DNA from: an uncultured Bacteroidota bacterium
Lineage (GTDB): Bacteria; Bacteroidota; Bacteroidia; Chitinophagales; Chitinophagaceae
Assembly (NCBI GenBank): GCA_963771435.1
Contig: CAVYTF010000018.1
Coordinates: 88,217-152,216 of the forward strand
Direction of reading: 5' to 3'
DNA: 64,000 nucleotides
In this document: one piece after another, positions 24,041 through 36,005 of the stretch
Layout of the letters: every line of letters begins with the position of its first letter
Numbering within the stretch: position 1 is the stretch's first letter
Notes under the pieces: model-generated
The model's database searches: none
What the model saw: the letters and a program-made list of their open reading frames with translations, nothing else
What the model was told of the DNA's origin: nothing
Translations under genes and position numbers: made by a program

Positions 24041-24763
24041 TCACCATTGACCCTCCCACACCCTCATCTTCATCATTACGTTTCCCAAGGGCCTGTCATG
24101 GCTGTCTCTCGGCAGCTTTGCAATTTTATCAACCACGTCCATCCCTTTTATCACTTCCCCAAATACCGTATAATTCTGGTCAAGGAACGGCGCCCCCCCA
24201 ATTGTTTTATAAGCTTTTCGTTGTGCATCAGTATAAGTAAATGAAGGGTTCGATTGTCTTGCCTGGCATTCCACACCATTTAGCTGTATATCAGTAAACT
24301 GTTTTCCTTGCACAATATAAAACTGGCAGTTACTGCTCGCTTTTTCAGGATTATCGTCCCTCGCCATCGCCAACGCGCCTCTTTTGTGAAACAAAAAAGG
24401 CTTAAATTCAGCGGGTATCTTCTCCCCGCCGGGAATTTCCCCATTGCCCAATTGCACAGAATCCAATGGCGCGTTCTTGCTCGTAGGGTCGCCTCCCTGT
24501 ATCATAAATCCGTCTATCACACGGTGGAACAAAAGGCTATCATAAAACTTCTCTTTCACCAGCTTAATAAAATTATCCCTGTGCAGCGGGGTTGAGTCAT
24601 ATAGCTTTATCACTATATTCCCATAGCTGGTCATAATTTCCACCAACGGCGTTTTAGCGGCAACAGTTTTTTTAGCGGCAATAGGTTTTCCAACAGTTTT
24701 TGTTTGTGCGCCTGCACATAATGCCAGGCAAACGCAAGCAGCAGCAATGATCAGTCTTTTCAT
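24041..24763 (-). CDS. Cyclophilin-type peptidyl-prolyl cis-trans isomerase, secreted
   Basis: 240 aa with a signal peptide. Contains the cyclophilin signature FHRVIDGFMIQGGDP and VFGEV. Confidence 0.9.
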   Translation of the reverse strand: MKRLIIAAACVCLALCAGAQTKTVGKPIAAKKTVAAKTPLVEIMTSYGNIVIKLYDSTPLHRDNFIKLVKEKFYDSLLFHRVIDGFMIQGGDPTSKNAPLDSVQLGNGEIPGGEKIPAEFKPFLFHKRGALAMARDDNPEKASSNCQFYIVQGKQFTDIQLNGVECQARQSNPSFTYTDAQRKAYKTIGGAPFLDQNYTVFGEVIKGMDVVDKIAKLPRDSHDRPLGNVMMKMRVWEGQW

Positions 24764-24777
24764 TTTGCAATAATAAT

Positions 24778-25164
24778 TTAAAATCCTTGTTCCCCGAAGT
24801 AAAGCAAAATATGATCTTTCAAAAAGTTTTCCTGTTCTATAAGTGGCAATGCAGGCAGTTCCTTAAGTTGCTCAAAATGAGGCCAGCCCTCCGCGTCTTT
24901 TTCGCGTAGCTCATAATAACCGCTCGGGCTCAAAACGGTGCATATTGCCACATGCATTAGGTCCTGTTTCTGTTCTTTGGTAATTTTCTCTTGTATAAAA
25001 CCCGTTTCCTGCAGGCCAATTAAAAACAAAACAGCCTCCATGTCAGGTTTCTTCCCAAACCGTTCCAACAACCCTGCCTCCAACCGCCACCACCTCTGCT
25101 GAAGATCATCATTAACAAACATAGCGCGAAGATAAAACACCATCAACAGATAATGATCAACCAC
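24778..25164 (-). CDS. Hypothetical protein
   Basis: 128-aa ORF. The true start may be the internal MFVNDD. I recognise no family. Confidence 0.45.
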   Translation of the reverse strand: MVDHYLLMVFYLRAMFVNDDLQQRWWRLEAGLLERFGKKPDMEAVLFLIGLQETGFIQEKITKEQKQDLMHVAICTVLSPSGYYELREKDAEGWPHFEQLKELPALPLIEQENFLKDHILLYFGEQGF

Positions 25165-25604: not shown

Positions 25605-28193
25605 TTACCTCGCCAGCACCATCTTCTTCGTATCGATCAGCTTCCCGTCAATCAATAAACTATATTGATACATACCCGCAGCCATTTCACCCCCGCTGAT
25701 AACCTGTTTCCCATACCCGCTATTGGCAAGCGTAAACGTTTTTAATGTATGCCCTGAAATATCTGTTATCATAAGCGCTGCATTATGAAAATCCTGTGGA
25801 ATATAGTAGCTTATATAAGAACTGCCGTTAAATGGGTTAGGTACATTCTGGTCAAGCCTTGGTTGGTCTGTAATAGTTGTCATTTGCTGGCTGCTTATTG
25901 TTCGTTGCATGTTTGATGTAAAGCTATTGCAGCATTGGCTCATGGCTGACTGCATCTGTGTAATGGTGTTTTTTAGATCACTCATTTGTTGCTGCAATGC
26001 AGTAACAGTGTTTTGCAATGGTTCCACAATATTTTTCAAAGAATCGTTCTCTACGGATAATTCCTGCACTGCTTTTACCAGCGGCACTACAAATTCACTG
26101 TAACGCAGGCTATACAGATCCTGCTCATTCTGTGGCTTTACCACACCGCTGAAATCGTAGTTGATCTTTTCTGCTGCATTTTCTACATCCTGGGCAAGAA
26201 AGCCCGTCATCTGCTTTTTTTCAAGGTCATATTTACCCGGAAAATCTACGTCAGCATTCTTCCCGTTGACTGTTTTACCTGCATACATCATTTGATCTTC
26301 TTTGTGTATATCAAGCTTATAGGTCACCGGCCTCAGCAGGTTAATAAAAGCAAGCCCCGGCACATTCTGTTGAATATTATTCTTTATCCGTCGGTCGCTG
26401 TAGGTGCTGAAGTTTACCTCCCCTCTGATAACGGTAACACTTCCATCGCCGATCTCCACCATATTACTTGAACTTGCACTCGAACCAACATCATACCCAA
26501 GCCCGGTCCAATTAGTTAATGTGGCAGTAGTTGGGTAAGCACGGAATCCAATACCGGTATTATAGTTTCCTGTTGTGTTGGTGGAAAGAGCATTTGCTCC
26601 AATAGCCGTATTATTTCCCCCCGTAGTGTTACTGATCATCGCTTGGTAACCGTCCACAGTATTATCGGCACCTGACGTATTTAAATAAAGAGTTTTACTG
26701 CCAATAGCTGTATTTGCTATTCCTGAATTATTACTATACAAAGCGGAATCACCAACGGCAACCTGGTTGCTGATTGTAAGGCTATTAAATAAAGTTTGTA
26801 CTCCGATCGCCACATTACTATAACCCGTGGTATTGTTGTATAATGAATTGAATCCGCTTGCAGTATTAGTATTTCCCGTAGTGTTTTCGTCGAGAGACCC
26901 ACTGCCATCAGCACTATTGTACATTCCTGTGGTATTATAGGAAAGGGCATCTTCTCCGTTTGCAGTATTATAGCTACCGGTAGTGTTGTTATATAGCGCT
27001 GCAAGTCCATTTGCAGTGTTATTATTCCCCGTGGTGTTATAATAAAGAGCTTCTCCCCCGTTTGCAGTATTGTAACTTCCCGTATTGTTGTTTATAAGGG
27101 CATCTTCTCCATTTGCCGTATTATAACTTCCTGTTGTATTAACAAATAGCGCAGATTCCCCATTTGCTGTATTATAATTTCCTGTAGTGTTGAAAAATAG
27201 CGCAGACTCCCCATTTGCCGTATTATCAATTCCTGTAGAGTTTTCATAAAGGGCACCAAAGCCAGTAGCAGTATTATCATCTCCTGTTGTATTGTAATAA
27301 AGACCTTGATAACCATTTGCAGTATTTTCACTTCCGGTAGTGTTTGAATAAAGCGCCTGGTATCCAGTGGCAATATTATAGTTTCCCGCAGTGTTTGAAT
27401 AAAGCGCCTGGTAACCATTGGCGCTGTTATAAACTCCGATTGTGTTTGAATAAAGAGACTGGTAACCTATAGCCACATTGTACGCTCCAGTTATATTTAA
27501 ATATAATGATTGATAACCATCAGCCGTATTCTGGCCTCCGGTAGTGTTTGAATGAAGTGCATTATATCCATTGGCCGTATTTTGGCTTCCGGTGGTGTTT
27601 GAATATAGTGCAGAATAACCTGTTGCTTGATTACCTGCACCCGTTGTATTGGAATACAGCGCCTCATACCCTACCGCCGTAAGATTGCTCACAGTGCTGT
27701 TAAAGAGCGTACCATACCCAACAGCAGTATTGTTGCTGCCGCTTACATTCGTATAAAGCGATTGGCCGCCATTTGCAAGGTTATAACTGCCCGTCGTGTT
27801 ATAATTTAGCGTTTGGCGCCCGATCCCGGTATTGTATTGCCCCGTCGTGTTGTATTGCAATGTTGTAGCCCCGTTCGCAACGTTAAACGAACCCGTAAGG
27901 CTAACTCCCCCTAATGCAGCATATCCAAGTGCGGTATTTTCGATTGGCGGATTACTGCCTGAAGCGTTTTGCAGGCATAGGTATCCAATGCCCGTATTAT
28001 AATGGCTGCCCGTATAAGTACCCTCAACAATACCTCCCTTCCTGCCGTCAAGAACAAAATTTAATGGAAATGCATTTGTAGTGCCCAAAACATTTCCGCT
28101 AACAGCTGCATTACCTGCCAGGCTCCAGCTCTGTGCAAATACAGCCTGTGTTATTACTAATAACAAGGCTCCGAAGAATACAATTTTTTTCAT
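25605..28193 (-). CDS. T9SS-sorted fibre protein, paralog 1 (NTANG/NTTG repeats + S74 tail-fibre chaperone domain + T9SS CTD)
   Basis: Start at MKKIVFFGALLLVITQAVFA/QSW; the ORF extension to 28271 runs through the upstream gene's terminator. It has 17-aa repeats, then SDRRIKNNIQQNVPGLAFINLLRPVTYKLD...GFLAQDVENAAE...LVKAVQEL (Peptidase S74 signature), a coiled coil, and the CTD LDQNVPNPFNGSS...YQYSLLIDGKLIDTKKMV. Confidence 0.85.
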   Translation of the reverse strand: MKKIVFFGALLLVITQAVFAQSWSLAGNAAVSGNVLGTTNAFPLNFVLDGRKGGIVEGTYTGSHYNTGIGYLCLQNASGSNPPIENTALGYAALGGVSLTGSFNVANGATTLQYNTTGQYNTGIGRQTLNYNTTGSYNLANGGQSLYTNVSGSNNTAVGYGTLFNSTVSNLTAVGYEALYSNTTGAGNQATGYSALYSNTTGSQNTANGYNALHSNTTGGQNTADGYQSLYLNITGAYNVAIGYQSLYSNTIGVYNSANGYQALYSNTAGNYNIATGYQALYSNTTGSENTANGYQGLYYNTTGDDNTATGFGALYENSTGIDNTANGESALFFNTTGNYNTANGESALFVNTTGSYNTANGEDALINNNTGSYNTANGGEALYYNTTGNNNTANGLAALYNNTTGSYNTANGEDALSYNTTGMYNSADGSGSLDENTTGNTNTASGFNSLYNNTTGYSNVAIGVQTLFNSLTISNQVAVGDSALYSNNSGIANTAIGSKTLYLNTSGADNTVDGYQAMISNTTGGNNTAIGANALSTNTTGNYNTGIGFRAYPTTATLTNWTGLGYDVGSSASSSNMVEIGDGSVTVIRGEVNFSTYSDRRIKNNIQQNVPGLAFINLLRPVTYKLDIHKEDQMMYAGKTVNGKNADVDFPGKYDLEKKQMTGFLAQDVENAAEKINYDFSGVVKPQNEQDLYSLRYSEFVVPLVKAVQELSVENDSLKNIVEPLQNTVTALQQQMSDLKNTITQMQSAMSQCCNSFTSNMQRTISSQQMTTITDQPRLDQNVPNPFNGSSYISYYIPQDFHNAALMITDISGHTLKTFTLANSGYGKQVISGGEMAAGMYQYSLLIDGKLIDTKKMVLAR

Positions 28194-28235
28194 GGCTTTT
28201 AATTTTAAAACAAGGTAAGGGATTTTTATTAACGA

Positions 28236-28268
28236 AATAAAAAAAGCCACTCCTTTCAGAATGGCTTT
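28236..28268 (-). terminator. Rho-independent terminator of paralog 2
   Basis: The minus strand reads AAAGCCA-ttctgaaaggag-TGGCTTT followed by a T-run, immediately after the stop of 28303..30819. Confidence 0.7.
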
Positions 28269-28302
28269 CAATTCTCAATTCTCAATTTTCAATTATAACT
28301 TC

Positions 28303-30819
28303 TCAATTTGCCTTCACCATCTTCTTCGTATCGATCAACTTCCCGTCTATCAGCAAAGAATACTGGTACATACCCGCTGCCATTTCAGTGCCGCTGATAA
28401 TTTGCCTTCCATACCCGATGTTAGCAAGAGGATATGTTTTTAATGTATGCCCTGAAATATCAGTAACAATAAGAGCTGCATTGTGAGAACCCTGCGGAAT
28501 ATAATAGCTGACATACGAACTCCCGTTAAACGGGTTAGGCACATTCTGGTCAAGCCTCGGCTGGTCAGTAATTGCAGTTACCTGCTTATCACTTCCCGGC
28601 GCCTGCATAGACGAAGAAAAGCTATTACAGCACTGGCTCATCGCTGATTCTATTTGACTGATTTTTGCATTTACATTATCTAACTGTTGTTGTAGCGCTG
28701 TAACTGTGCTTTGCAATGGTTGCATAATGTTCTTCAACGAGTCTATCTGTTGTTGTTTATCGGTATTCGTAGCGCTCAACTCTTGTACTGCCTTCACCAG
28801 CGGCATCACAAACTCAGCATACCGCAAACCATACAAGTCTTTGCTGTTCTTAGCAGCATCAACGCCACTAAAGTTATAGTTCATTTCTTTTGCAACCTTT
28901 TCTACATCCTGCGCTATAAATCCTGTGTAAACAATTTGCTCTTTTGCACTGCGCGCAGCTAATTTCTGCTGTGTAGGTTGTATGACCTTCCCGTCCTTAT
29001 CTTTATGAACAGGCGGCTGTATTATTCTATCAGCAGCATCAAGGTCAAGGTTGTAAGTTATTGGCTGCAATTGGTTAATGAAAGCCAACCCTGGCACATT
29101 TTGCTGTATATTTTTCTTCACCCTGCCATCGCTTATATTGGTCCAGTTTGCATAGCCACCAATACTGGTCTGTTCGCCATCACCTATCCGTACCTGGTTG
29201 GTTGCAGTAATTATTGCGCCTGAGCCAAAGGAGCTTGCATCAGTAAACCCATCTGCATTTACGTCAGCGCCAAGACCATCCGCCGTGAGATTGACTCCTG
29301 TATAATTGTTTTCCAGGGCACTAGCTCCATTGGCCGTGTTACCACTTCCTGTAGTGTTGGATAAAAGGGCATAGTTCCCGGTTGCAGTATTCTGATAACT
29401 CGTAGTATTGGAGCTAAGGGCGCTACAACCATTTGCAGTATTCTGATAACCTGTAGTGTTAGCATAAAGAGCGTAATAACCGTTTGCAATGTTATTAAAC
29501 CCCGTAGTGTTATACTGAAGGGATTGTTGTCCATTTGCAGTGTTATTACTCCCTGTAGTGTTATAATAAAGGGCTTCAGCTCCATTGGCAGTATTATACT
29601 CCCCCTTAGTGTTATAATAAAGGGCTTCATAACCATTGGCAGTGTTGTCTTCCCCGGTAGTGTCGTAGTAAAGGGCTTTATAGCCATTTGCAGTGTTTTG
29701 AAACCCCGTAGTATTGGAATAAAGGGCATTAACTCCAGTCGCAGTGTTGTAACTTCCACTGGTGTTAGCAAAAAGGGCATACGCTCCATATGCAGCATTA
29801 TCATACCCCGACACATTTGAATAAAGAGATTGATAACCGTTTGCAGTGTTTTCAATTCCTGTGGTGTTGGCAGTAAGGGCTGCATATCCATTGGCAGTGT
29901 TGTAATTCCCGGTAGTGTTCGCAGCAAGTGCGTATGCCCCATTGGCTGCGTTATTTTTCCCTGACGCATTTACATAAAGAGACTGATAACCGTTTGCAGT
30001 GTTGTAACTCCCCGTGGTGTTGGAAGCAAGCGCCTGCATCCCATTGGCGGTATTGTTGCTCCCTGTGGTATTATGCAAAAGGGCAGCTCCCCCATTTGCA
30101 GTGTTACTGCTTCCTGTGGTGTTGAAATAAAGCGCTGTATATCCATTCGCCGTGTTTTCAATTCCCGTAGTGTTGGAAGTAAGCGCTGCATAACCATTTG
30201 CAGTATTGTCCCCCCCTGTTGTATTCAAATAAAGGGATTGATAACCGGTAGCTACATTGCCGGCCCCCGTTGTATTTGAGTACAAAGATTCATACCCCAC
30301 TGCCGTAAGATTGCTCACCGTGCTGTTAAAGAGCGTACCATACCCAACAGCAGTATTGTTGCTTCCGGTCACATTCGTATAAAGGGACTGACCGCCATTT
30401 GCAAGGTTATAACTGCCCGTTGTGTTATAATTAAGCGTTTGGCGCCCGATCCCTGTATTATATTGCCCGGTCGTGTTGTATTGCAATGTTGTAGCTCCGT
30501 TCGCAACGTTAAACGAACCCGTAAGGCTAACTCCCCCTAATGCAGCATATCCAAGTGCAGTATTTTCTATCGGTGGGTTACTGCCTGAAGCGTTTTGCAG
30601 GCACAGGTACCCGATGCCCGTATTATAATGGCTGCCCGTATAAGTACCCTCTACAATACCTCCCTTTCTGCCGTCAAGAACAAAGTTTAATGGAAATGCG
30701 TTGGTCGTCCCTAACACATTACCGCTAACAGCTGCATTGCCTGCCAGGCTCCAGCTTTGTGCATAAACAGTCTGCATTGCTATTAATAGCAGTGCTGCGA
30801 AGAATACAATTTTTCTCAT
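28303..30819 (-). CDS. T9SS-sorted fibre protein, paralog 2
   Basis: Start at MRKIVFFAALLLIAMQTVYA/QSW (ATG 30817-30819). Same architecture as paralog 1. The S74 Ser codon (SDGRVKKNI) is at 29131-29133 and the CTD is about 28306-28554. Confidence 0.85.
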   Translation of the reverse strand: MRKIVFFAALLLIAMQTVYAQSWSLAGNAAVSGNVLGTTNAFPLNFVLDGRKGGIVEGTYTGSHYNTGIGYLCLQNASGSNPPIENTALGYAALGGVSLTGSFNVANGATTLQYNTTGQYNTGIGRQTLNYNTTGSYNLANGGQSLYTNVTGSNNTAVGYGTLFNSTVSNLTAVGYESLYSNTTGAGNVATGYQSLYLNTTGGDNTANGYAALTSNTTGIENTANGYTALYFNTTGSSNTANGGAALLHNTTGSNNTANGMQALASNTTGSYNTANGYQSLYVNASGKNNAANGAYALAANTTGNYNTANGYAALTANTTGIENTANGYQSLYSNVSGYDNAAYGAYALFANTSGSYNTATGVNALYSNTTGFQNTANGYKALYYDTTGEDNTANGYEALYYNTKGEYNTANGAEALYYNTTGSNNTANGQQSLQYNTTGFNNIANGYYALYANTTGYQNTANGCSALSSNTTSYQNTATGNYALLSNTTGSGNTANGASALENNYTGVNLTADGLGADVNADGFTDASSFGSGAIITATNQVRIGDGEQTSIGGYANWTNISDGRVKKNIQQNVPGLAFINQLQPITYNLDLDAADRIIQPPVHKDKDGKVIQPTQQKLAARSAKEQIVYTGFIAQDVEKVAKEMNYNFSGVDAAKNSKDLYGLRYAEFVMPLVKAVQELSATNTDKQQQIDSLKNIMQPLQSTVTALQQQLDNVNAKISQIESAMSQCCNSFSSSMQAPGSDKQVTAITDQPRLDQNVPNPFNGSSYVSYYIPQGSHNAALIVTDISGHTLKTYPLANIGYGRQIISGTEMAAGMYQYSLLIDGKLIDTKKMVKAN

Positions 30820-30862
30820 GGCTTTTAATTTTTGAACAAGGTAGGGGATTTTTATTAACGAA

Positions 30863-30894
30863 ATAAAAAAAGCCACCCTTTCAGAATGGCTTTT
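30863..30894 (-). terminator. Rho-independent terminator of paralog 3
   Basis: AAAAGCCA-ttctgaaaggg-TGGCTTTT plus a T-run on the minus strand. Confidence 0.7.
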
Positions 30895-30927
30895 AATTCT
30901 CAATTCTCAATTTTCAATTATAACTTC

Positions 30928-33648
30928 TCAATTTGCCTTCACCATCTTCTTCGTATCGATCAGCCTCCCATCAATAAGCAAAGAATACTGGTACATTCCT
31001 GCCGCCATCTCGCTCCCGCTTATAACCTGCTTCCCGTATCCGCTGTTAGCAAGCGCAAACGTCTTCAATGTATGCCCCGAAATATCCACAACCATCAACT
31101 GTGCATTATGAAACCCTTGTGGAATATAATAGCTGATATACGAACTCCCGTTAAAAGGGTTCGGCACATTCTGGTCAAGTCTGGGCTGGTCTGTAATAGC
31201 CGTAACCTGTTTATCGCTAACCGGCGCCTGCATAGCCGAAGAGAAACTATTACAACACTGGCTCATAGCCGATTGCATTTGGGAAATAGTATTTTTTAGA
31301 TCGTTTAATTGTTGCTGTTGTGCATCAAGCTGTTCTTGTTGTGTATCAACCCTGGTATTCAAAGCTGTATTAGTTTGTTTCAGCGAATCATTCTTCACAC
31401 TCAACTCCTGCACTGCCTTCACCAGCGGCACCACAAACTCAGCATACCGCAAACCATACAGATCCTTACTATTCTTTGCAGCATCAACGCCGCTAAAATT
31501 GTAATTCATACCCTTTGCTGCTTTCTCTACATCCTGCGCTATAAACCCGGTATAAACAATTTGCTCTTTTGCAGTACGCGCAGCTAATTGTTCCTGTGTT
31601 GGCTGTATAACATTTCCTTTAGCATCTTTATGAACATGAGGCTGCACTATCTTGTCCGCAGCATCAAGGTTAAGATTATAAGTAACTGGTTGCAATTGGT
31701 TAATGAATGCAAGCCCCGGTACATTTTGTTGTATATTTTTCTTTACCCTGCCATCACTTATATTGCTCCAACCTACATAACCGCCAATACTGGTCTGGTC
31801 TTCATCCCCAATTACTGTAGAGTAACTTGCTGTAAGATATGCTTGGTAGCCAAAGGCGCTTGCATCAACAAATCCACCTGCATTTACGTCAGCCTCAAAA
31901 CCCACCGCTGTTAGACTATTCCCTGCAATGTTTGAATAAAGGGCTTCAAGTCCATTTGCAGTGTTATAATACCCCGTAGTGTTTTGAGCAAGGGCTAATT
32001 CCCCGTTTGCAGCATTCTGATAACCCGTAGTGTTGAAAGATAGGGCGCTATTACCATTGGCAGTATTATCACTTCCTGTGGTATTGGCAGATAGGGCGTT
32101 ATAACCATCGGCAGTATTATGCCCACCAATAGTATTTGCATAGAGTGTGAGAACACCATTTGCAGTATTATAAGCTCCTATAGTATTATCCTGAAGGGAT
32201 TGTTGTCCATTCGCAGTGTTATTACTCCCCGTAGTGTTATAATAAAGGGCATCAGCTCCATTGGCAGTATTATACTCCCCCGTAGTGTTATAATAAAGGG
32301 CTTCATACCCATTGGCAGTATTGTTCTCCCCCGTAGTATCGTAGTAAAGGGCTTTATAGCCATTTGCAGTATTTTGAAACCCCGTAGTGTTGAAATAAAG
32401 GGCTTCATAACCATTTGCAGTGTTTTGACCCCCCGTGTTATTATAGTAAAGGGCAGCATACCCGCTTGCAGTATTGGCAGTTCCCGTAGTGTTGAAATAT
32501 AGGGCATATATTCCATTTGCGGTATTATTATTCCCTGTCGTATTAAGATAAAGGGCTTGCATCCCGGTTGCAGTGTTGTTGTTTCCCGTCGTATTAGTAA
32601 AAAGAGCTTTATATCCATTTGCAGTGTTGAAGCTCCCCGTAGTGTTGACAGAAAGGGCATAGGCTCCATTGGCAGCGTTATTGCCTCCCGTGGTGTTGGC
32701 AGAAAGGGCATCATACCCATTTGCAGTGTTGTAACTCCCCGTGGTGTTCGCAGCAAGGGCATACGCTCCATTGGCAGCGTTATCATTCCCTGACGCATTT
32801 GTATAAAGAGATTGATAACCGTTTGCGGTATTGTAATTCCCCGTGGTGTTGAAAGCAAGCGCCTGCATCCCATTGCCAGTATTATTGCTTCCCGTGGTAT
32901 TATGCAAAAGGGCGGATACCCCATTTGCAGTATTGCTGCTTCCCGTAGTGTTGAAATAAAGCGCAGATACCCCATTTGCAGTATTACTGCTTCCGGTAGT
33001 GTTGGCATATAGGGCTAAATAACCATTTGCAGTGTTATCCCCTCCAGTTGTATTCAAATAAAGGGATTGATAACCTGTAGCCACATTACCCGTACCAGTC
33101 GTATTCGAATACAACGATTCATACCCTACCGCCGTAAGATTGCTCACCGTGCTGTTAAAGAGCGTACCATACCCAACAGCAGTATTGTTGCTTCCGGTCA
33201 CATTCGTATAAAGGGACTGCCCGCCATTTGCAAGGTTATAACTACCGGTCGTGTTATAATTAAGCGTTTGGCGCCCGATCCCGGTATTGTATTGCCCGGT
33301 CGTGTTGTATTGCAATGTTGTAGCTCCGTTCGCAACGTTAAACGAACCTGTAAGGCTAACTCCCCCTAATGCAGCATATCCAAGTGCAGTATTTTCTATC
33401 GGTGGGTTACTGCCTGAAGCGTTTTGCAGGCACAGGTACCCGATGCCCGTATTATAATGGCTGCCCGTATAAGTACCCTCTACAATACCTCCCTTCCTTC
33501 CGTCAAGAACAAAGTTTAATGGAAAGGCGTTGGTCGTCCCTAACACATTACCGCTAACAGCCGCATTACCTGTCAGGCTCCAGCTCTGTGCATGCACAGT
33601 CTGCATTGCTATTAATAGCAGTGCTGCGAAGAATACAATTTTTCTCAT
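30928..33648 (-). CDS. T9SS-sorted fibre protein, paralog 3 (longest, ~906 aa)
   Basis: Start at MRKIVFFAALLLIAMQTVHA/QSW (ATG 33646-33648). Same architecture as the other paralogs. Confidence 0.85.
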   Translation of the reverse strand: MRKIVFFAALLLIAMQTVHAQSWSLTGNAAVSGNVLGTTNAFPLNFVLDGRKGGIVEGTYTGSHYNTGIGYLCLQNASGSNPPIENTALGYAALGGVSLTGSFNVANGATTLQYNTTGQYNTGIGRQTLNYNTTGSYNLANGGQSLYTNVTGSNNTAVGYGTLFNSTVSNLTAVGYESLYSNTTGTGNVATGYQSLYLNTTGGDNTANGYLALYANTTGSSNTANGVSALYFNTTGSSNTANGVSALLHNTTGSNNTGNGMQALAFNTTGNYNTANGYQSLYTNASGNDNAANGAYALAANTTGSYNTANGYDALSANTTGGNNAANGAYALSVNTTGSFNTANGYKALFTNTTGNNNTATGMQALYLNTTGNNNTANGIYALYFNTTGTANTASGYAALYYNNTGGQNTANGYEALYFNTTGFQNTANGYKALYYDTTGENNTANGYEALYYNTTGEYNTANGADALYYNTTGSNNTANGQQSLQDNTIGAYNTANGVLTLYANTIGGHNTADGYNALSANTTGSDNTANGNSALSFNTTGYQNAANGELALAQNTTGYYNTANGLEALYSNIAGNSLTAVGFEADVNAGGFVDASAFGYQAYLTASYSTVIGDEDQTSIGGYVGWSNISDGRVKKNIQQNVPGLAFINQLQPVTYNLNLDAADKIVQPHVHKDAKGNVIQPTQEQLAARTAKEQIVYTGFIAQDVEKAAKGMNYNFSGVDAAKNSKDLYGLRYAEFVVPLVKAVQELSVKNDSLKQTNTALNTRVDTQQEQLDAQQQQLNDLKNTISQMQSAMSQCCNSFSSAMQAPVSDKQVTAITDQPRLDQNVPNPFNGSSYISYYIPQGFHNAQLMVVDISGHTLKTFALANSGYGKQVISGSEMAAGMYQYSLLIDGRLIDTKKMVKAN

Positions 33649-33693
33649 GGCTTTTAATTTTTGAACAAGGTAGGGGATTTTTATTAACGAAAT

Positions 33694-33723
33694 AAAAAAA
33701 GCCATCCTTTCAGAATGGCTTTC
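33694..33723 (-). terminator. Rho-independent terminator of paralog 4
   Basis: AAAGCCAT-tctgaaagg-ATGGCTTT plus T7 on the minus strand. Confidence 0.75.
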
Positions 33724-33749
33724 AATTCTCAATTTTCAATTATAACTTC

Positions 33750-36005
33750 TCAATTTGCCTTCACCATCTTCTTCGTATCTATCAGCTTCCCATCAATAAG
33801 CAAAGAATACTGGTACATTCCTGCCGCCATCTCGCTTCCGCTGATAACCTGCTTCCCGTATCCGCTGTTAGCAAGCGCAAACGTCTTCAATGTATGCCCC
33901 GAAATATCCACCACCATCAACTGTGCACTATGAAACCCTTGTGGAATATAATAACTGATATACGAACTCCCGTTAAAAGGATTAGGCACATTCTGGTCAA
34001 GCTTTGGTTGGTCAGAGATATTGCTGACTGCTGACTGCATTCCTGAAGAAAAACTATTGCAGCACTGGCTCATTGCCGATTGCATCTGTGCAACAGTGCT
34101 CTTAAGATCATTTAACTGCTGTTGAAGGGTATCGATCTTTGCATCTTTCACCTCATTTATAGCAGATAACTCCTGCACTGCCTTCACCAGCGGCACCACA
34201 AACTCAGCATACCTCAAACCATACAGATCCTTACTGTTCTTTGCAGCATCAACACCACTAAAGTTATAGCTTACTTTTTGCGCTGCTTTCTCCACATCCT
34301 GTGCTATAAAGCCTGTATAAACAATTTGCTCTTTAGCACTGCGCGCAGCCAATTGTTCCTGTGTTGGCTGTATGGTATTGCCTTTAGCATCTTTATGAAC
34401 AGGCGGTTCTACTATCTTGTCCGCAGCATCAAGGTTAAGATTATAAGTAACTGGTTGCAATTGGTTAATAAATGTCAATCCCGGCACATTTTGTAGTATA
34501 TTCTTCTTCACTCTGCCATCACTTATATTGGTCCAGTTTGCATAACCGCCGATACTGGTGATCTGATTATCCCCAATGCGTACCTGGTAACTTGCTGTGG
34601 CAAGTGCATCGTAGCCAAAAGCGCCGGCATCAGTATAACTGGTATCATTTACATTAGCATTATACCCATCGCCGGTGTTATTACTGCCAGAAGTGTTGTA
34701 ATTAAGCGCGCTACCGCCATTTGCAGTGTTATAAATCCCCCTGGTGTTGAATTCAAGGGCGCCCTCTCCATGGGCAGTATTGTAGCCTCCCGTGGTGTTG
34801 AACTGGAGAGCCCCATTTCCATTGGCAGTATTTGAGTTCCCTGTAGTATTATCATAAAGGGCCTCGTTCCCGTTTGCTGTGTTATAATTCCCCGTGCTAT
34901 TGTAACCAAGAGAGTAGGCCCCTGTTGCGGTATTGTAACCTCCCGTGGTGTTCGTGCCCAGGGAAGACACCCCATTTGCAGTATTTTGAGTTCCTGTGGT
35001 GTTGTAATATAGGGCCTCGTTCCCGTTTGCTGTGTTATTACTTCCCGTAGTGTTGTATGCGAGGGCAGACTCCCCGTTGGCAGTGTTTTCGTTTCCTGTA
35101 GTGTTGTTAACAAGAGCCAGGTGTCCATTTGCAGTGTTATAATTACCCGTGGTATTAGACAAAAGCGCAAAATATCCGTTTCCGGTATTGTAACTCCCCG
35201 TGGTGTTATAATAAAGGGCGCTATACCCATCTGCAGTGTTATCATTTCCCGTGGTGTTGGAATACAGCGATTGATAAGCGGTAGCTGCATTATAACTCCC
35301 CGTGGTATTGAAATAAAGGGTCTGGTAACCGGTAGCTGCATTATAACTCCCCGTTGTGTTGCTATAAAGGGCCTTGTTCCCGTTTGCAGTATTTTGATAG
35401 CCTGTAGTATTAAAATAAAGAGATTGATAACCGGTAGCCACATTCCCTGTACCTGTTGTATTTGAATACAGCGCCTCATACCCCACTGCCGTAAGATTGC
35501 TCACCGTGCTGCTATACAGCGTACCGTACCCAACAGCAGTATTGTTGCTGCCGGTCACATTCGTATAAAGGGACTGACCGCCATTTGCAAGGTTATAACT
35601 GCCCGTCGTGTTATAATTAAGCGTTTGGCGCCCGATCCCGGTATTGTATTGCCCTGTCGTGTTGTATTGCAATGTTGTAGCTCCGTTCGCAACATTAAAC
35701 GAACCCGTAAGGCTAATTCCCCCTAATGCAGCATATCCAAGTGCGGTATTTTCTATCGGTGGGTTACTGCCTGAAGCGTTTTGCAGGCATAGGAACCCGA
35801 TACCCGTATTATAATGGCTGCCTGTATAAGTACCCTCAACAATACCCCCTTTCCTGCCGTCAAGAATAAAGTTTAATGGAAAAGCATTGGTAGTGCCCAA
35901 AACATTACCGCTAACAGCTGCATTGCCTGCCAGGCTCCAGCTTTGTGCATGTGCAGCCTGTATCATAATTAGAAACACCGCTGTAAAGAAGATGTTTTTT
36001 TTCAT
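33750..36005 (-). CDS. T9SS-sorted fibre protein, paralog 4 (shortest, 751 aa)
   Basis: MKKNIFFTAVFLIMIQAAHA/QSW. Same N-terminal module, repeats, S74 signature (SDGRVKKNILQNVPGLTFINQLQPVTYNLN), coiled coil and CTD. Confidence 0.85.
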   Translation of the reverse strand: MKKNIFFTAVFLIMIQAAHAQSWSLAGNAAVSGNVLGTTNAFPLNFILDGRKGGIVEGTYTGSHYNTGIGFLCLQNASGSNPPIENTALGYAALGGISLTGSFNVANGATTLQYNTTGQYNTGIGRQTLNYNTTGSYNLANGGQSLYTNVTGSNNTAVGYGTLYSSTVSNLTAVGYEALYSNTTGTGNVATGYQSLYFNTTGYQNTANGNKALYSNTTGSYNAATGYQTLYFNTTGSYNAATAYQSLYSNTTGNDNTADGYSALYYNTTGSYNTGNGYFALLSNTTGNYNTANGHLALVNNTTGNENTANGESALAYNTTGSNNTANGNEALYYNTTGTQNTANGVSSLGTNTTGGYNTATGAYSLGYNSTGNYNTANGNEALYDNTTGNSNTANGNGALQFNTTGGYNTAHGEGALEFNTRGIYNTANGGSALNYNTSGSNNTGDGYNANVNDTSYTDAGAFGYDALATASYQVRIGDNQITSIGGYANWTNISDGRVKKNILQNVPGLTFINQLQPVTYNLNLDAADKIVEPPVHKDAKGNTIQPTQEQLAARSAKEQIVYTGFIAQDVEKAAQKVSYNFSGVDAAKNSKDLYGLRYAEFVVPLVKAVQELSAINEVKDAKIDTLQQQLNDLKSTVAQMQSAMSQCCNSFSSGMQSAVSNISDQPKLDQNVPNPFNGSSYISYYIPQGFHSAQLMVVDISGHTLKTFALANSGYGKQVISGSEMAAGMYQYSLLIDGKLIDTKKMVKAN

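Follow-up and report, generated by a model that had tools for sequence, protein, structure and literature searches.

A type IX secretion system (T9SS) is the chief route by which Bacteroidota export proteins, and the accepted maturation of its cargo is a cut by PorU beside the C-terminal domain (CTD). A different release chemistry is found in phage proteins such as endoNF, the L-shaped tail fibre of T5 and the neck appendage of GA-1, in which an S74/ICA domain ends the protein and acts in the cytoplasm. In the MYRF / MrfA proteins, self-cleavage before a Ser frees an N-terminal trimer, and the ICA domain stays with the membrane anchor. MyRF is cut at the P586-S587 bond, the trimer is required, R590 helps to position the site, and a C-terminal triple coiled coil of the ICA domain drives trimerisation; S587 and K592 of MyRF correspond to S911 and K916 of endoNF and are indispensable (PMC8326128). 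Here we analysed a stretch of 64,000 nucleotides (the window) from contig CAVYTF010000018.1 of an uncultured Chitinophagaceae bacterium, which carries a head-to-tail array of four paralogous genes on the minus strand (25605-36005 in the list of open reading frames, ORFs). All four products share one layout: putative signal peptide, N-domain, 17-residue repeats, tip, S74 domain, long helix, linker and CTD. We lean towards reading them as domesticated phage-type trimeric fibres, destined for export by Sec and then by the T9SS and cut from their own CTD by the ICA domain.

Predicted catalytic residues and domain order of paralog 2

The last 293 residues of paralog 2 are called the module below, and module residues are counted from the first of these. 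The features are as follows.

28303-30819, minus strand: paralog 2, from the probable ATG (MRKIVFF...) to the TGA at 28303-28305; precursor of 838 residues, 87.9 kDa
30760-30819, minus strand: putative Sec signal peptide MRKIVFFAALLLIAMQTVYA, read by eye, with a predicted cut after ..YA and before the Gln of QSWSL
30289-30759, minus strand: conserved N-terminal domain, 157 residues, delimited by per-region identities among the paralogs
29269-30288, minus strand: fibre shaft of 17-residue (51-bp) repeats, NTTGxxNTANGxxALxx (Tandem Repeats Finder, paralog alignment, PHROGs)
29134-29268, minus strand: variable distal tip, 45 residues, ending ...GGYANWTNI; 30-64% identity among the paralogs
29134-29136, minus strand: predicted P1 Ile of the mature fibre, the scissile bond being placed by analogy with P586-S587 of MyRF
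Ending at the predicted P1 Ile, minus strand: predicted semi-tryptic peptide at the fibre C-terminus, IGDGEQTSIGGYANWTNI-COOH, which follows from the predicted Ile-Ser cut
29131-29133, minus strand: Ser predicted to be catalytic (codon AGC; S591 in the numbering of the listed ORF), at Pfam position 1; GGYANWTNI precedes it and SDGRVKKNIQ begins with it
29116-29124, minus strand: Arg(+3) at 29122-29124 and predicted catalytic Lys(+5) at 29116-29118 (K596), in an S-D-x-R-x-K motif
28774-29133, minus strand: S74/ICA core (Pfam, hhalign, Foldseek), with an insertion of about 30 residues relative to the phage versions
28627-28821, minus strand: single helix of 65 residues, predicted trimeric coiled coil (AlphaFold2, module residues 122-186)
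28555-28626, minus strand: flexible linker NSFSSSMQAPGSDKQVTAITDQPR, expected region of a PorU-type cut; predicted local distance difference test (pLDDT) score below 50 at module residues 190-203
28306-28554, minus strand: T9SS type A CTD by TIGR04183 and fold, 83 residues, 9.0 kDa (LDQNVPNPF...KKMVKAN), residues 784-866 of the listed ORF

Pfam recognised a Peptidase_S74 domain (PF13884) in all four paralogs at 30.4-36.2 bits (gathering score, 22), and position 1 of the profile coincided with the predicted Ser. The initial annotation, made from the letters of the window, had placed this Ser at 29131-29133, and the position proved exact. Alignment with hhalign to S74 domains from viral contigs gave a probability of 99.6% (E=9.5e-25), with SDgRvKKNI in register with phage SDRRxKxxI. 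An AlphaFold2 model of the module had a mean pLDDT of 89.7; when it was searched with Foldseek against BFVD, the matches were phage ICA, Peptidase S74, endo-N-acetylneuraminidase and tail-fibre proteins, to E=2.7e-7. On these sequence and model comparisons, we take the S74 domain to be a genuine member of the ICA family. Sequence searches of the PDB with the module, either as a single sequence or as a 31-sequence profile, returned spurious coiled-coil matches only, and a fold search of the PDB with the whole module was dominated by generic immunoglobulin (Ig)-like sandwiches from the CTD.

Ser and Lys(+5) were invariant in the four paralogs, paralog 1 reading YSDRRIKN. Conservation was then counted in 121 homologues of the module (43-72% identity), taking for each alignment column only the sequences that cover it. 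Ser was kept in 114 of 115, Arg(+3) in 116 of 116 and Lys(+5) in 119 of 119, and the single Ser exception resembled a truncated gene call. The S-D-x-x-x-K pattern was present in 103 of 104 genome-encoded members. Two relatives of 25-28% identity, which carry short unrelated N-terminal cargo, kept the motif as SDARAK and SDASLK. Loss of the Ser/Lys dyad in an alignment had been named in advance as a finding that would speak against self-cleavage; the alignment was made, and the claim survived it. Since the counterparts of the MyRF cleavage features are present, the scissile bond of paralog 2 is predicted, by analogy, to be Ile590-Ser591.

The helix behind the S74 core was modelled at pLDDT 94-98 up to about module residue 180 and at 74 for residues 181-190, which include a Cys-Cys pair. 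This pair (MSQCCNSF, 28627-28632) stands at the helix end in all four paralogs and in about 5-8 of the 121 homologues, and is subfamily-specific. Disulfides between chains at this pair could lock the trimer of the C-terminal stub in the periplasm.

Upstream of the S74 domain, the putative signal peptide, as judged by direct reading, consists of an n-region and a hydrophobic region that lead to an A-x-A-like site; Gln stands at +1 in each of the four paralogs. The N-domain is 96-99% identical among the paralogs in protein and only 92-97% in DNA, which points to purifying selection rather than recent conversion. The repeat copy number varies between paralogs. In PHROGs, the fibre body and S74 domain fell into tail-spike and virion structural families (E=1.6e-75 and E=1.6e-88); the profile for tail spikes stopped at the S74/helix region, so that the linker, the CTD and the greater part of the coil had no counterpart in it. 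A PDB sequence search with the fibre part found no relevant relatives, only spurious coiled-coil matches. From sequence comparison of the paralogs, the conserved N-domain together with the variable tip resembles the pattern of phage fibres, in which a docking end is set against a diversifying distal end. The variable tips and repeat numbers make these proteins look like surface-exposed, diversifying structures. The N-domain is a candidate common docking end that could keep a released fibre on the cell, and continued attachment through the N-terminus after release would fit this pattern.

The C-terminal sorting domain and its family

The CTD had been placed at about 28306-28554, and the boundaries were exact: the segment reads LDQNVPNPF...KKMVKAN, is followed by TGA and passes TIGR04183 narrowly. 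AlphaFold2 folded it as a 7-strand beta-sandwich (module residues 215-291, pLDDT about 96). Foldseek with the module model retrieved Ig-like sandwiches as well as phage proteins named 'Secretion system C-terminal sorting domain'. The motifs N-P-N-P-F, G-x-Y-x-Y and K-K/M-x-L are present, and the domain occupies the extreme C-terminus. Most homologues carry a precomputed PF18962 match; the two distant relatives mentioned above score 30.8 and 34.1 bits, and exceed the Pfam thresholds for both S74 and Por_Secre_tail. A PorU-type cleavage of the CTD would be expected in the linker.

Some relatives are labelled 'trimeric autotransporter adhesin' by the Joint Genome Institute (JGI). We rejected this name: neither Pfam nor NCBIfam matched a YadA-type beta-barrel anchor in the four paralogs, and the C-terminus is the Ig-like CTD.

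A word-indexed search with the module returned 2,141 proteins, mostly with PF13884 plus PF18962. The few relatives that have a name are called only 'tail fiber domain-containing protein' (NCBI). An exhaustive hidden Markov model search of 1.84 billion cluster representatives (50%-identity clusters) gave 4,697 at E<=1e-30. Among the best 150 of these 4,697, all matches ended no more than 6 residues from the protein C-terminus, and 148 spanned essentially the full S74-coil-CTD profile. Reference genomes contained at least 581 loci with the module, and the closest reference-genome match to the window protein was 58% identical. All 78 loci examined were from Bacteroidota, including many Chitinophagales as well as Bacteroidales and Flavobacteriales, orders known to have a T9SS; Foetidibacter luteolus and Paraflavisolibacter caeni are cultured carriers. 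Tandem arrays of two to four copies were found in 26 of the 78 loci.

The predicted cleavage site lies N-terminal to the CTD in all four paralogs, as the initial annotation had stated, and always in the CTD-bearing family. That annotation had also argued from the four paralogs that the arrangement was no chance fusion. The conclusion holds family-wide, because thousands of proteins contain the complete module; the argument itself was weak, the four paralogs being recent duplicates. Judged from these searches, the S74-coil-CTD module constitutes a very large Bacteroidota family.

The distance from the Ser to the C-terminus is 93-115 residues in viral contigs, versus a median of 250 in the bacterial family, and the extension of coil plus CTD is present in 97 of 101 members. 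About 4% of members are without the CTD, so the CTD is, as far as the sequences tell, an add-on to a Sec-exported fibre family.

One locus illustrates this CTD-less form. In a Chitinophagaceae metagenome-assembled genome (DASYOM010000028.1; L057:387-6813), three tandem genes encode a signal peptide, fibre, S74 domain (SDGRFKKN) and coiled coil without a CTD, and lie directly upstream of a CTD-bearing member. Mixed trimers or a fate outside the T9SS are conceivable for this layout. Two members came from IMG/VR contigs (L079:1-1194 and L081:7701-8636) and are short proteins of 397 and 311 residues with a signal peptide, a small unrelated N-domain, an S74 domain, a coil and a clear CTD. The few flanking genes that have a Pfam match look cellular (aminotransferase, TetR, methyltransferase and subtilase in L081; an AAA ATPase only in L079), and these stretches may have been misfiled as viral or may flank a prophage.

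Across the 78 related loci, no T9SS or chaperone gene was a conserved neighbour, and the neighbours seen in the window recurred nowhere else. A Reg_prop/Y_Y_Y/His_kinase sensor of about 1050 residues adjoins family members in 20 of the 78 loci (e.g. L012:1420-4560), often accompanied by a response regulator of the LuxR type (8 loci; L024:8736-9518) or the LytTR type (6 loci; L022:3584-4384). These neighbours suggest dedicated regulation of the fibre genes; the window contains no such sensor or regulator neighbour.

Proposed maturation and alternative explanations

In the reading that we lean towards, the signal peptide would be removed first. Given the putative Sec signal peptide, folding would have to occur in the periplasm or outside the cell. 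The ICA domain and the long coiled coil would then join three chains and template the folding of the repeat shaft from its C-terminal end. The trimeric ICA domain would cut the Ile-Ser bond (29134-29136 and 29131-29133 in paralog 2) by means of the Ser/Lys dyad, and the CTD would engage the T9SS translocon. The products would be a mature fibre of 55.3 kDa and a stub of 30.4 kDa, made up of ICA domain, coil, linker and CTD. The calculated mass of the uncleaved chain is 85.7 kDa, and that of the stub after loss of its CTD is 21.3 kDa; the stub is predicted to begin with SDGRVKK. The fibre would be released without a PorU cut; the stub would be the sole PorU substrate and would be either anchored or shed.

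The order of these events matters. If folding in the periplasm precedes recruitment to the translocon, cleavage would precede export, and the proposed route would then need either non-covalent carriage or delayed cleavage. The CTD would still be useful if the stub stayed non-covalently bound and carried the fibre through the translocon; alternatively, the cut might wait until the CTD has been engaged or exported. When translocons are trapped, the PorV/SprA pocket is occupied by the CTD, and the passenger lies at the periplasmic rim (PMC10994853). The initial annotation had held that a cut in the periplasm means loss of the export signal. This does not necessarily follow, as the cleaved chaperone trimer could stay bound, but the timing problem that it raised is real. 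Overall, its sequence premises hold and its interpretation is partly supported: autoproteolysis, its timing and export through the T9SS are what we infer from the sequences.

Several observations weigh against this reading. Reviews propose that T9SS cargo is already folded in the periplasm when it is recruited (PMC10202324), and the cleaved chaperone of phage endoNF is released from the fibre (PMC8326128). The CTD scores are marginal: TIGR04183 gave 23.3-26.3 bits on the isolated 89-residue tails against a cutoff of 23, with paralog 2 at 23.3, and PF18962 gave 18-19.4 against a gathering score of 27 in three tails and no match for paralog 2. The structure models are monomers, whereas the expected state is an interlocked trimer. 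A model of the S74 domain alone was poor (pLDDT 61, from a shallower alignment), and its best match in the PDB, the MyRF ICA domain 7dc3, was weak (E=0.06), although it belongs to the expected family; 3gud and 3gw6 ranked lower. The ORFs scanned in the 64-kb window included no T9SS genes, and literature searches found no paper on cleavage, trimerisation or secretion for any family member.

The S74 domain might instead serve as an uncleaved trimerisation or folding unit, with PorU removing the CTD and anchoring the trimer by its coiled-coil end; the mature protein, of about 77 kDa, would then keep fibre, S74 domain and coil. No reading fits the canonical T9SS pathway more simply, and a surface-anchored C-terminal coiled-coil stalk would present the fibre outwards; in MyRF, moreover, cleavage can be gated by other factors. 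However, thousands of sequences, down to 25% identity, keep Ser, Arg(+3) and Lys(+5) essentially without exception. Such invariance is hard to explain if catalysis is dispensable, since pure trimerisation needs no dyad. An uncleaved fibre anchored in this way would also hold its most conserved part, the N-domain, distally, the opposite of the usual fibre logic. We consider this explanation unlikely; if the fibre does keep its S74 domain, the family reduces to a common, uncharacterised family of adhesins.

Cleavage in the periplasm might also strand the fibre there or on the inward-facing side of the outer membrane, so that only the ICA-coil-CTD stub would be exported. Both the proposed folding of cargo in the periplasm (PMC10202324) and the sequence of events in endoNF, where the ICA cut follows folding and the chaperone is released (PMC8326128), are compatible with such an outcome, and CTD-less relatives with signal peptides exist (the L057 trio), for which a periplasmic fate is conceivable. 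Stranding would nevertheless fail to explain why almost all members (97 of 101) keep the CTD, and the export of nothing but a spent chaperone would be wasteful. The variable tips and repeat numbers, which look surface-exposed and diversifying, likewise argue against it, and we regard stranding as improbable.

There would be no secretion conflict at all if the beta-sandwich were not a working T9SS signal but a generic Ig-like or FlgD-like domain belonging to the chaperone module. The window proteins give some room for this: their PF18962 matches are below the gathering score or absent, TIGR04183 is passed by only 0.3-3.3 bits, and FlgD_ig also weakly matches the CTD tails. The CTD was, moreover, absent from the reports of whole-protein scans of the four paralogs and appeared when the tail was scanned alone. 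Against a generic sandwich stand the precomputed PF18962 matches of most homologues, the 30.8-34.1 bits of the distant relatives, the extreme C-terminal position and the three CTD motifs. All 78 loci examined belong to Bacteroidota, and phage S74 domains are without the CTD. We judge this explanation to be quite improbable.

The genes might, finally, encode cytoplasmically assembled tail fibres that belong to a prophage or to a contractile injection system. This is suggested by the strong PHROGs tail-spike and virion structural matches, by the NCBI name of the relatives and by the S74 domains that fibres of extracellular injection systems are known to carry. Such an origin is very improbable, however, given the putative Sec signal peptide and CTD in all four paralogs, the chromosomal housekeeping context and the two-component regulators that recur as neighbours in related loci; a scan of the 20 larger ORFs around the array in the 64-kb window also found no phage, sheath/tube or injection-system genes.

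Domesticated fibres cut from their own CTD would open a further and more tentative possibility, namely a large, hitherto undescribed class of T9SS cargo that matures without PorU acting on the functional product. Trimers would be exported, the ICA domain would sever the coil-CTD stub, and either the stub or the N-domain would hold the fibre on the surface. If this is true, thousands of cargo proteins have a second, cargo-encoded release mechanism, and the T9SS carries obligate oligomers or, alternatively, supports folding after transport. The family could then serve as a probe of cargo folding and oligomerisation before transport, of the passage of a trimer through SprA/Sov, and of the choice between release and anchoring. 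Cells would have co-opted a phage cassette of fibre plus chaperone as a means of surface display. The tandem arrays, in which base domains are conserved and tips vary, hint at adhesins or receptors that diversify.

Gene context and comparison with known systems

The four genes most probably start at conserved ATG codons (28193, 30819, 33648 and 36005), after each of which comes a typical signal-peptide sequence ending in ..A before QSWSL. The other three paralogs are as follows.

25605-28193, minus strand: paralog 1; Ser codon at 26397-26399 (YSDRRIKN), CTD at 25608-25856
30928-33648, minus strand: paralog 3; Ser codon at 31756-31758 (NISDGRVKK), CTD at 30931-31179
33750-36005, minus strand: paralog 4; Ser codon at 34521-34523 (NISDGRVKK), CTD at 33753-34001

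The window is ordinary chromosome, with genes for phosphoenolpyruvate carboxylase, acetyl-CoA synthetase, an M13 peptidase, ATP synthase, an extracytoplasmic function (ECF) sigma/anti-sigma pair and an outer-membrane beta-barrel protein. Near paralog 1 lies a secreted cyclophilin-type peptidyl-prolyl isomerase (24041-24763, minus strand), about 840 bp downstream, with one ORF of 128 residues (24778-25164) between. It is tempting to regard this cyclophilin as a periplasmic folding helper for the fibres, yet no cyclophilin adjoins family members in the 78 related loci, and we rejected the idea. Sequencing runs matched only 5-7% of the words of the locus.

The intergenic spacers (28266-28309 and 30891-30934; also upstream of 28193, 30819 and 33648) each contain 5-6 copies of a heptamer, AATTGAG / GAGAATT. 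The heptamer run begins at the stop codon of the upstream gene and is followed by a terminator-like hairpin (GCCATTCTGAAAGGAGTGGC plus a T-run). The spacer, of roughly 110 bp, was duplicated together with the gene, and its heptamer run could be regulatory or slippage-prone. Long ORFs of up to 276 residues occur in other frames (26717-27418, 29259-29969, 32178-33008 and 34649-35479), together with plus-strand ORFs; all lie over the 51-bp repeats and are most likely by-products of repeat composition rather than genes.

With the phage S74/ICA proteins, the paralogs share the domain family and the S-D-x-R-x-K dyad, the position of the domain at the C-terminal end of a repeat fibre, a helix suited to a trimeric coiled coil, and a fibre body homologous to tail-spike families. 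Unlike the phage proteins, they continue for about 150 more residues, comprising a longer coil, a linker and the CTD; they also carry a putative Sec signal peptide and the insertion of about 30 residues within the domain.

The closest precedent is MYRF / MrfA. There, as here, the ICA domain stands between an N-terminal functional part and a C-terminal localisation element, with Ser, Arg(+3) and Lys(+5) present. By the example of MYRF, a localisation element can lie downstream of a working ICA domain, which stays with it after the cut. The differences are that a secretion signal replaces the transmembrane helix, a fibre the DNA-binding domain, and the bacterial envelope the membrane of the eukaryotic endoplasmic reticulum; the proteins are alike in logic without being orthologous.

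Canonical T9SS type A cargo, such as the gingipain RgpB and F. johnsoniae ChiA, resembles the paralogs in its Sec signal, which is putative in the paralogs, its Ig-like CTD of about 80 residues (TIGR04183) and its restriction to Bacteroidota. Such cargo is cut from its CTD by the PorU sortase, whereas the paralogs have their own predicted self-cleaving domain upstream of the CTD. Neither trimers nor self-cleavage receive mention in a 2023 review of T9SS effectors (PMC10202324), and full-text literature searches found no paper linking S74/ICA with the T9SS. Among described T9SS cargo, we found none with a self-cleaving domain upstream of the CTD and no obligate trimeric fibre.

Autotransporters offer a parallel in a different secretion system. 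In type Va autotransporters (SPATEs/EspP), intramolecular cleavage frees the passenger after export, and in the trimeric autotransporter adhesins of type Vc, a C-terminal trimerisation unit nucleates the repeat fibre. Like both, the paralogs join a C-terminal export or anchoring device to an N-terminal passenger. They differ in having no Pfam match to a beta-barrel translocator or YadA anchor, in the secretion system and in the predicted cleavage chemistry, which would use a Ser/Lys dyad in an interlocked trimer. Each of the two domains of the module has been described before, and databases list the family under a generic name; what we regard as new is the combination of S74 and T9SS domains in a cargo protein.

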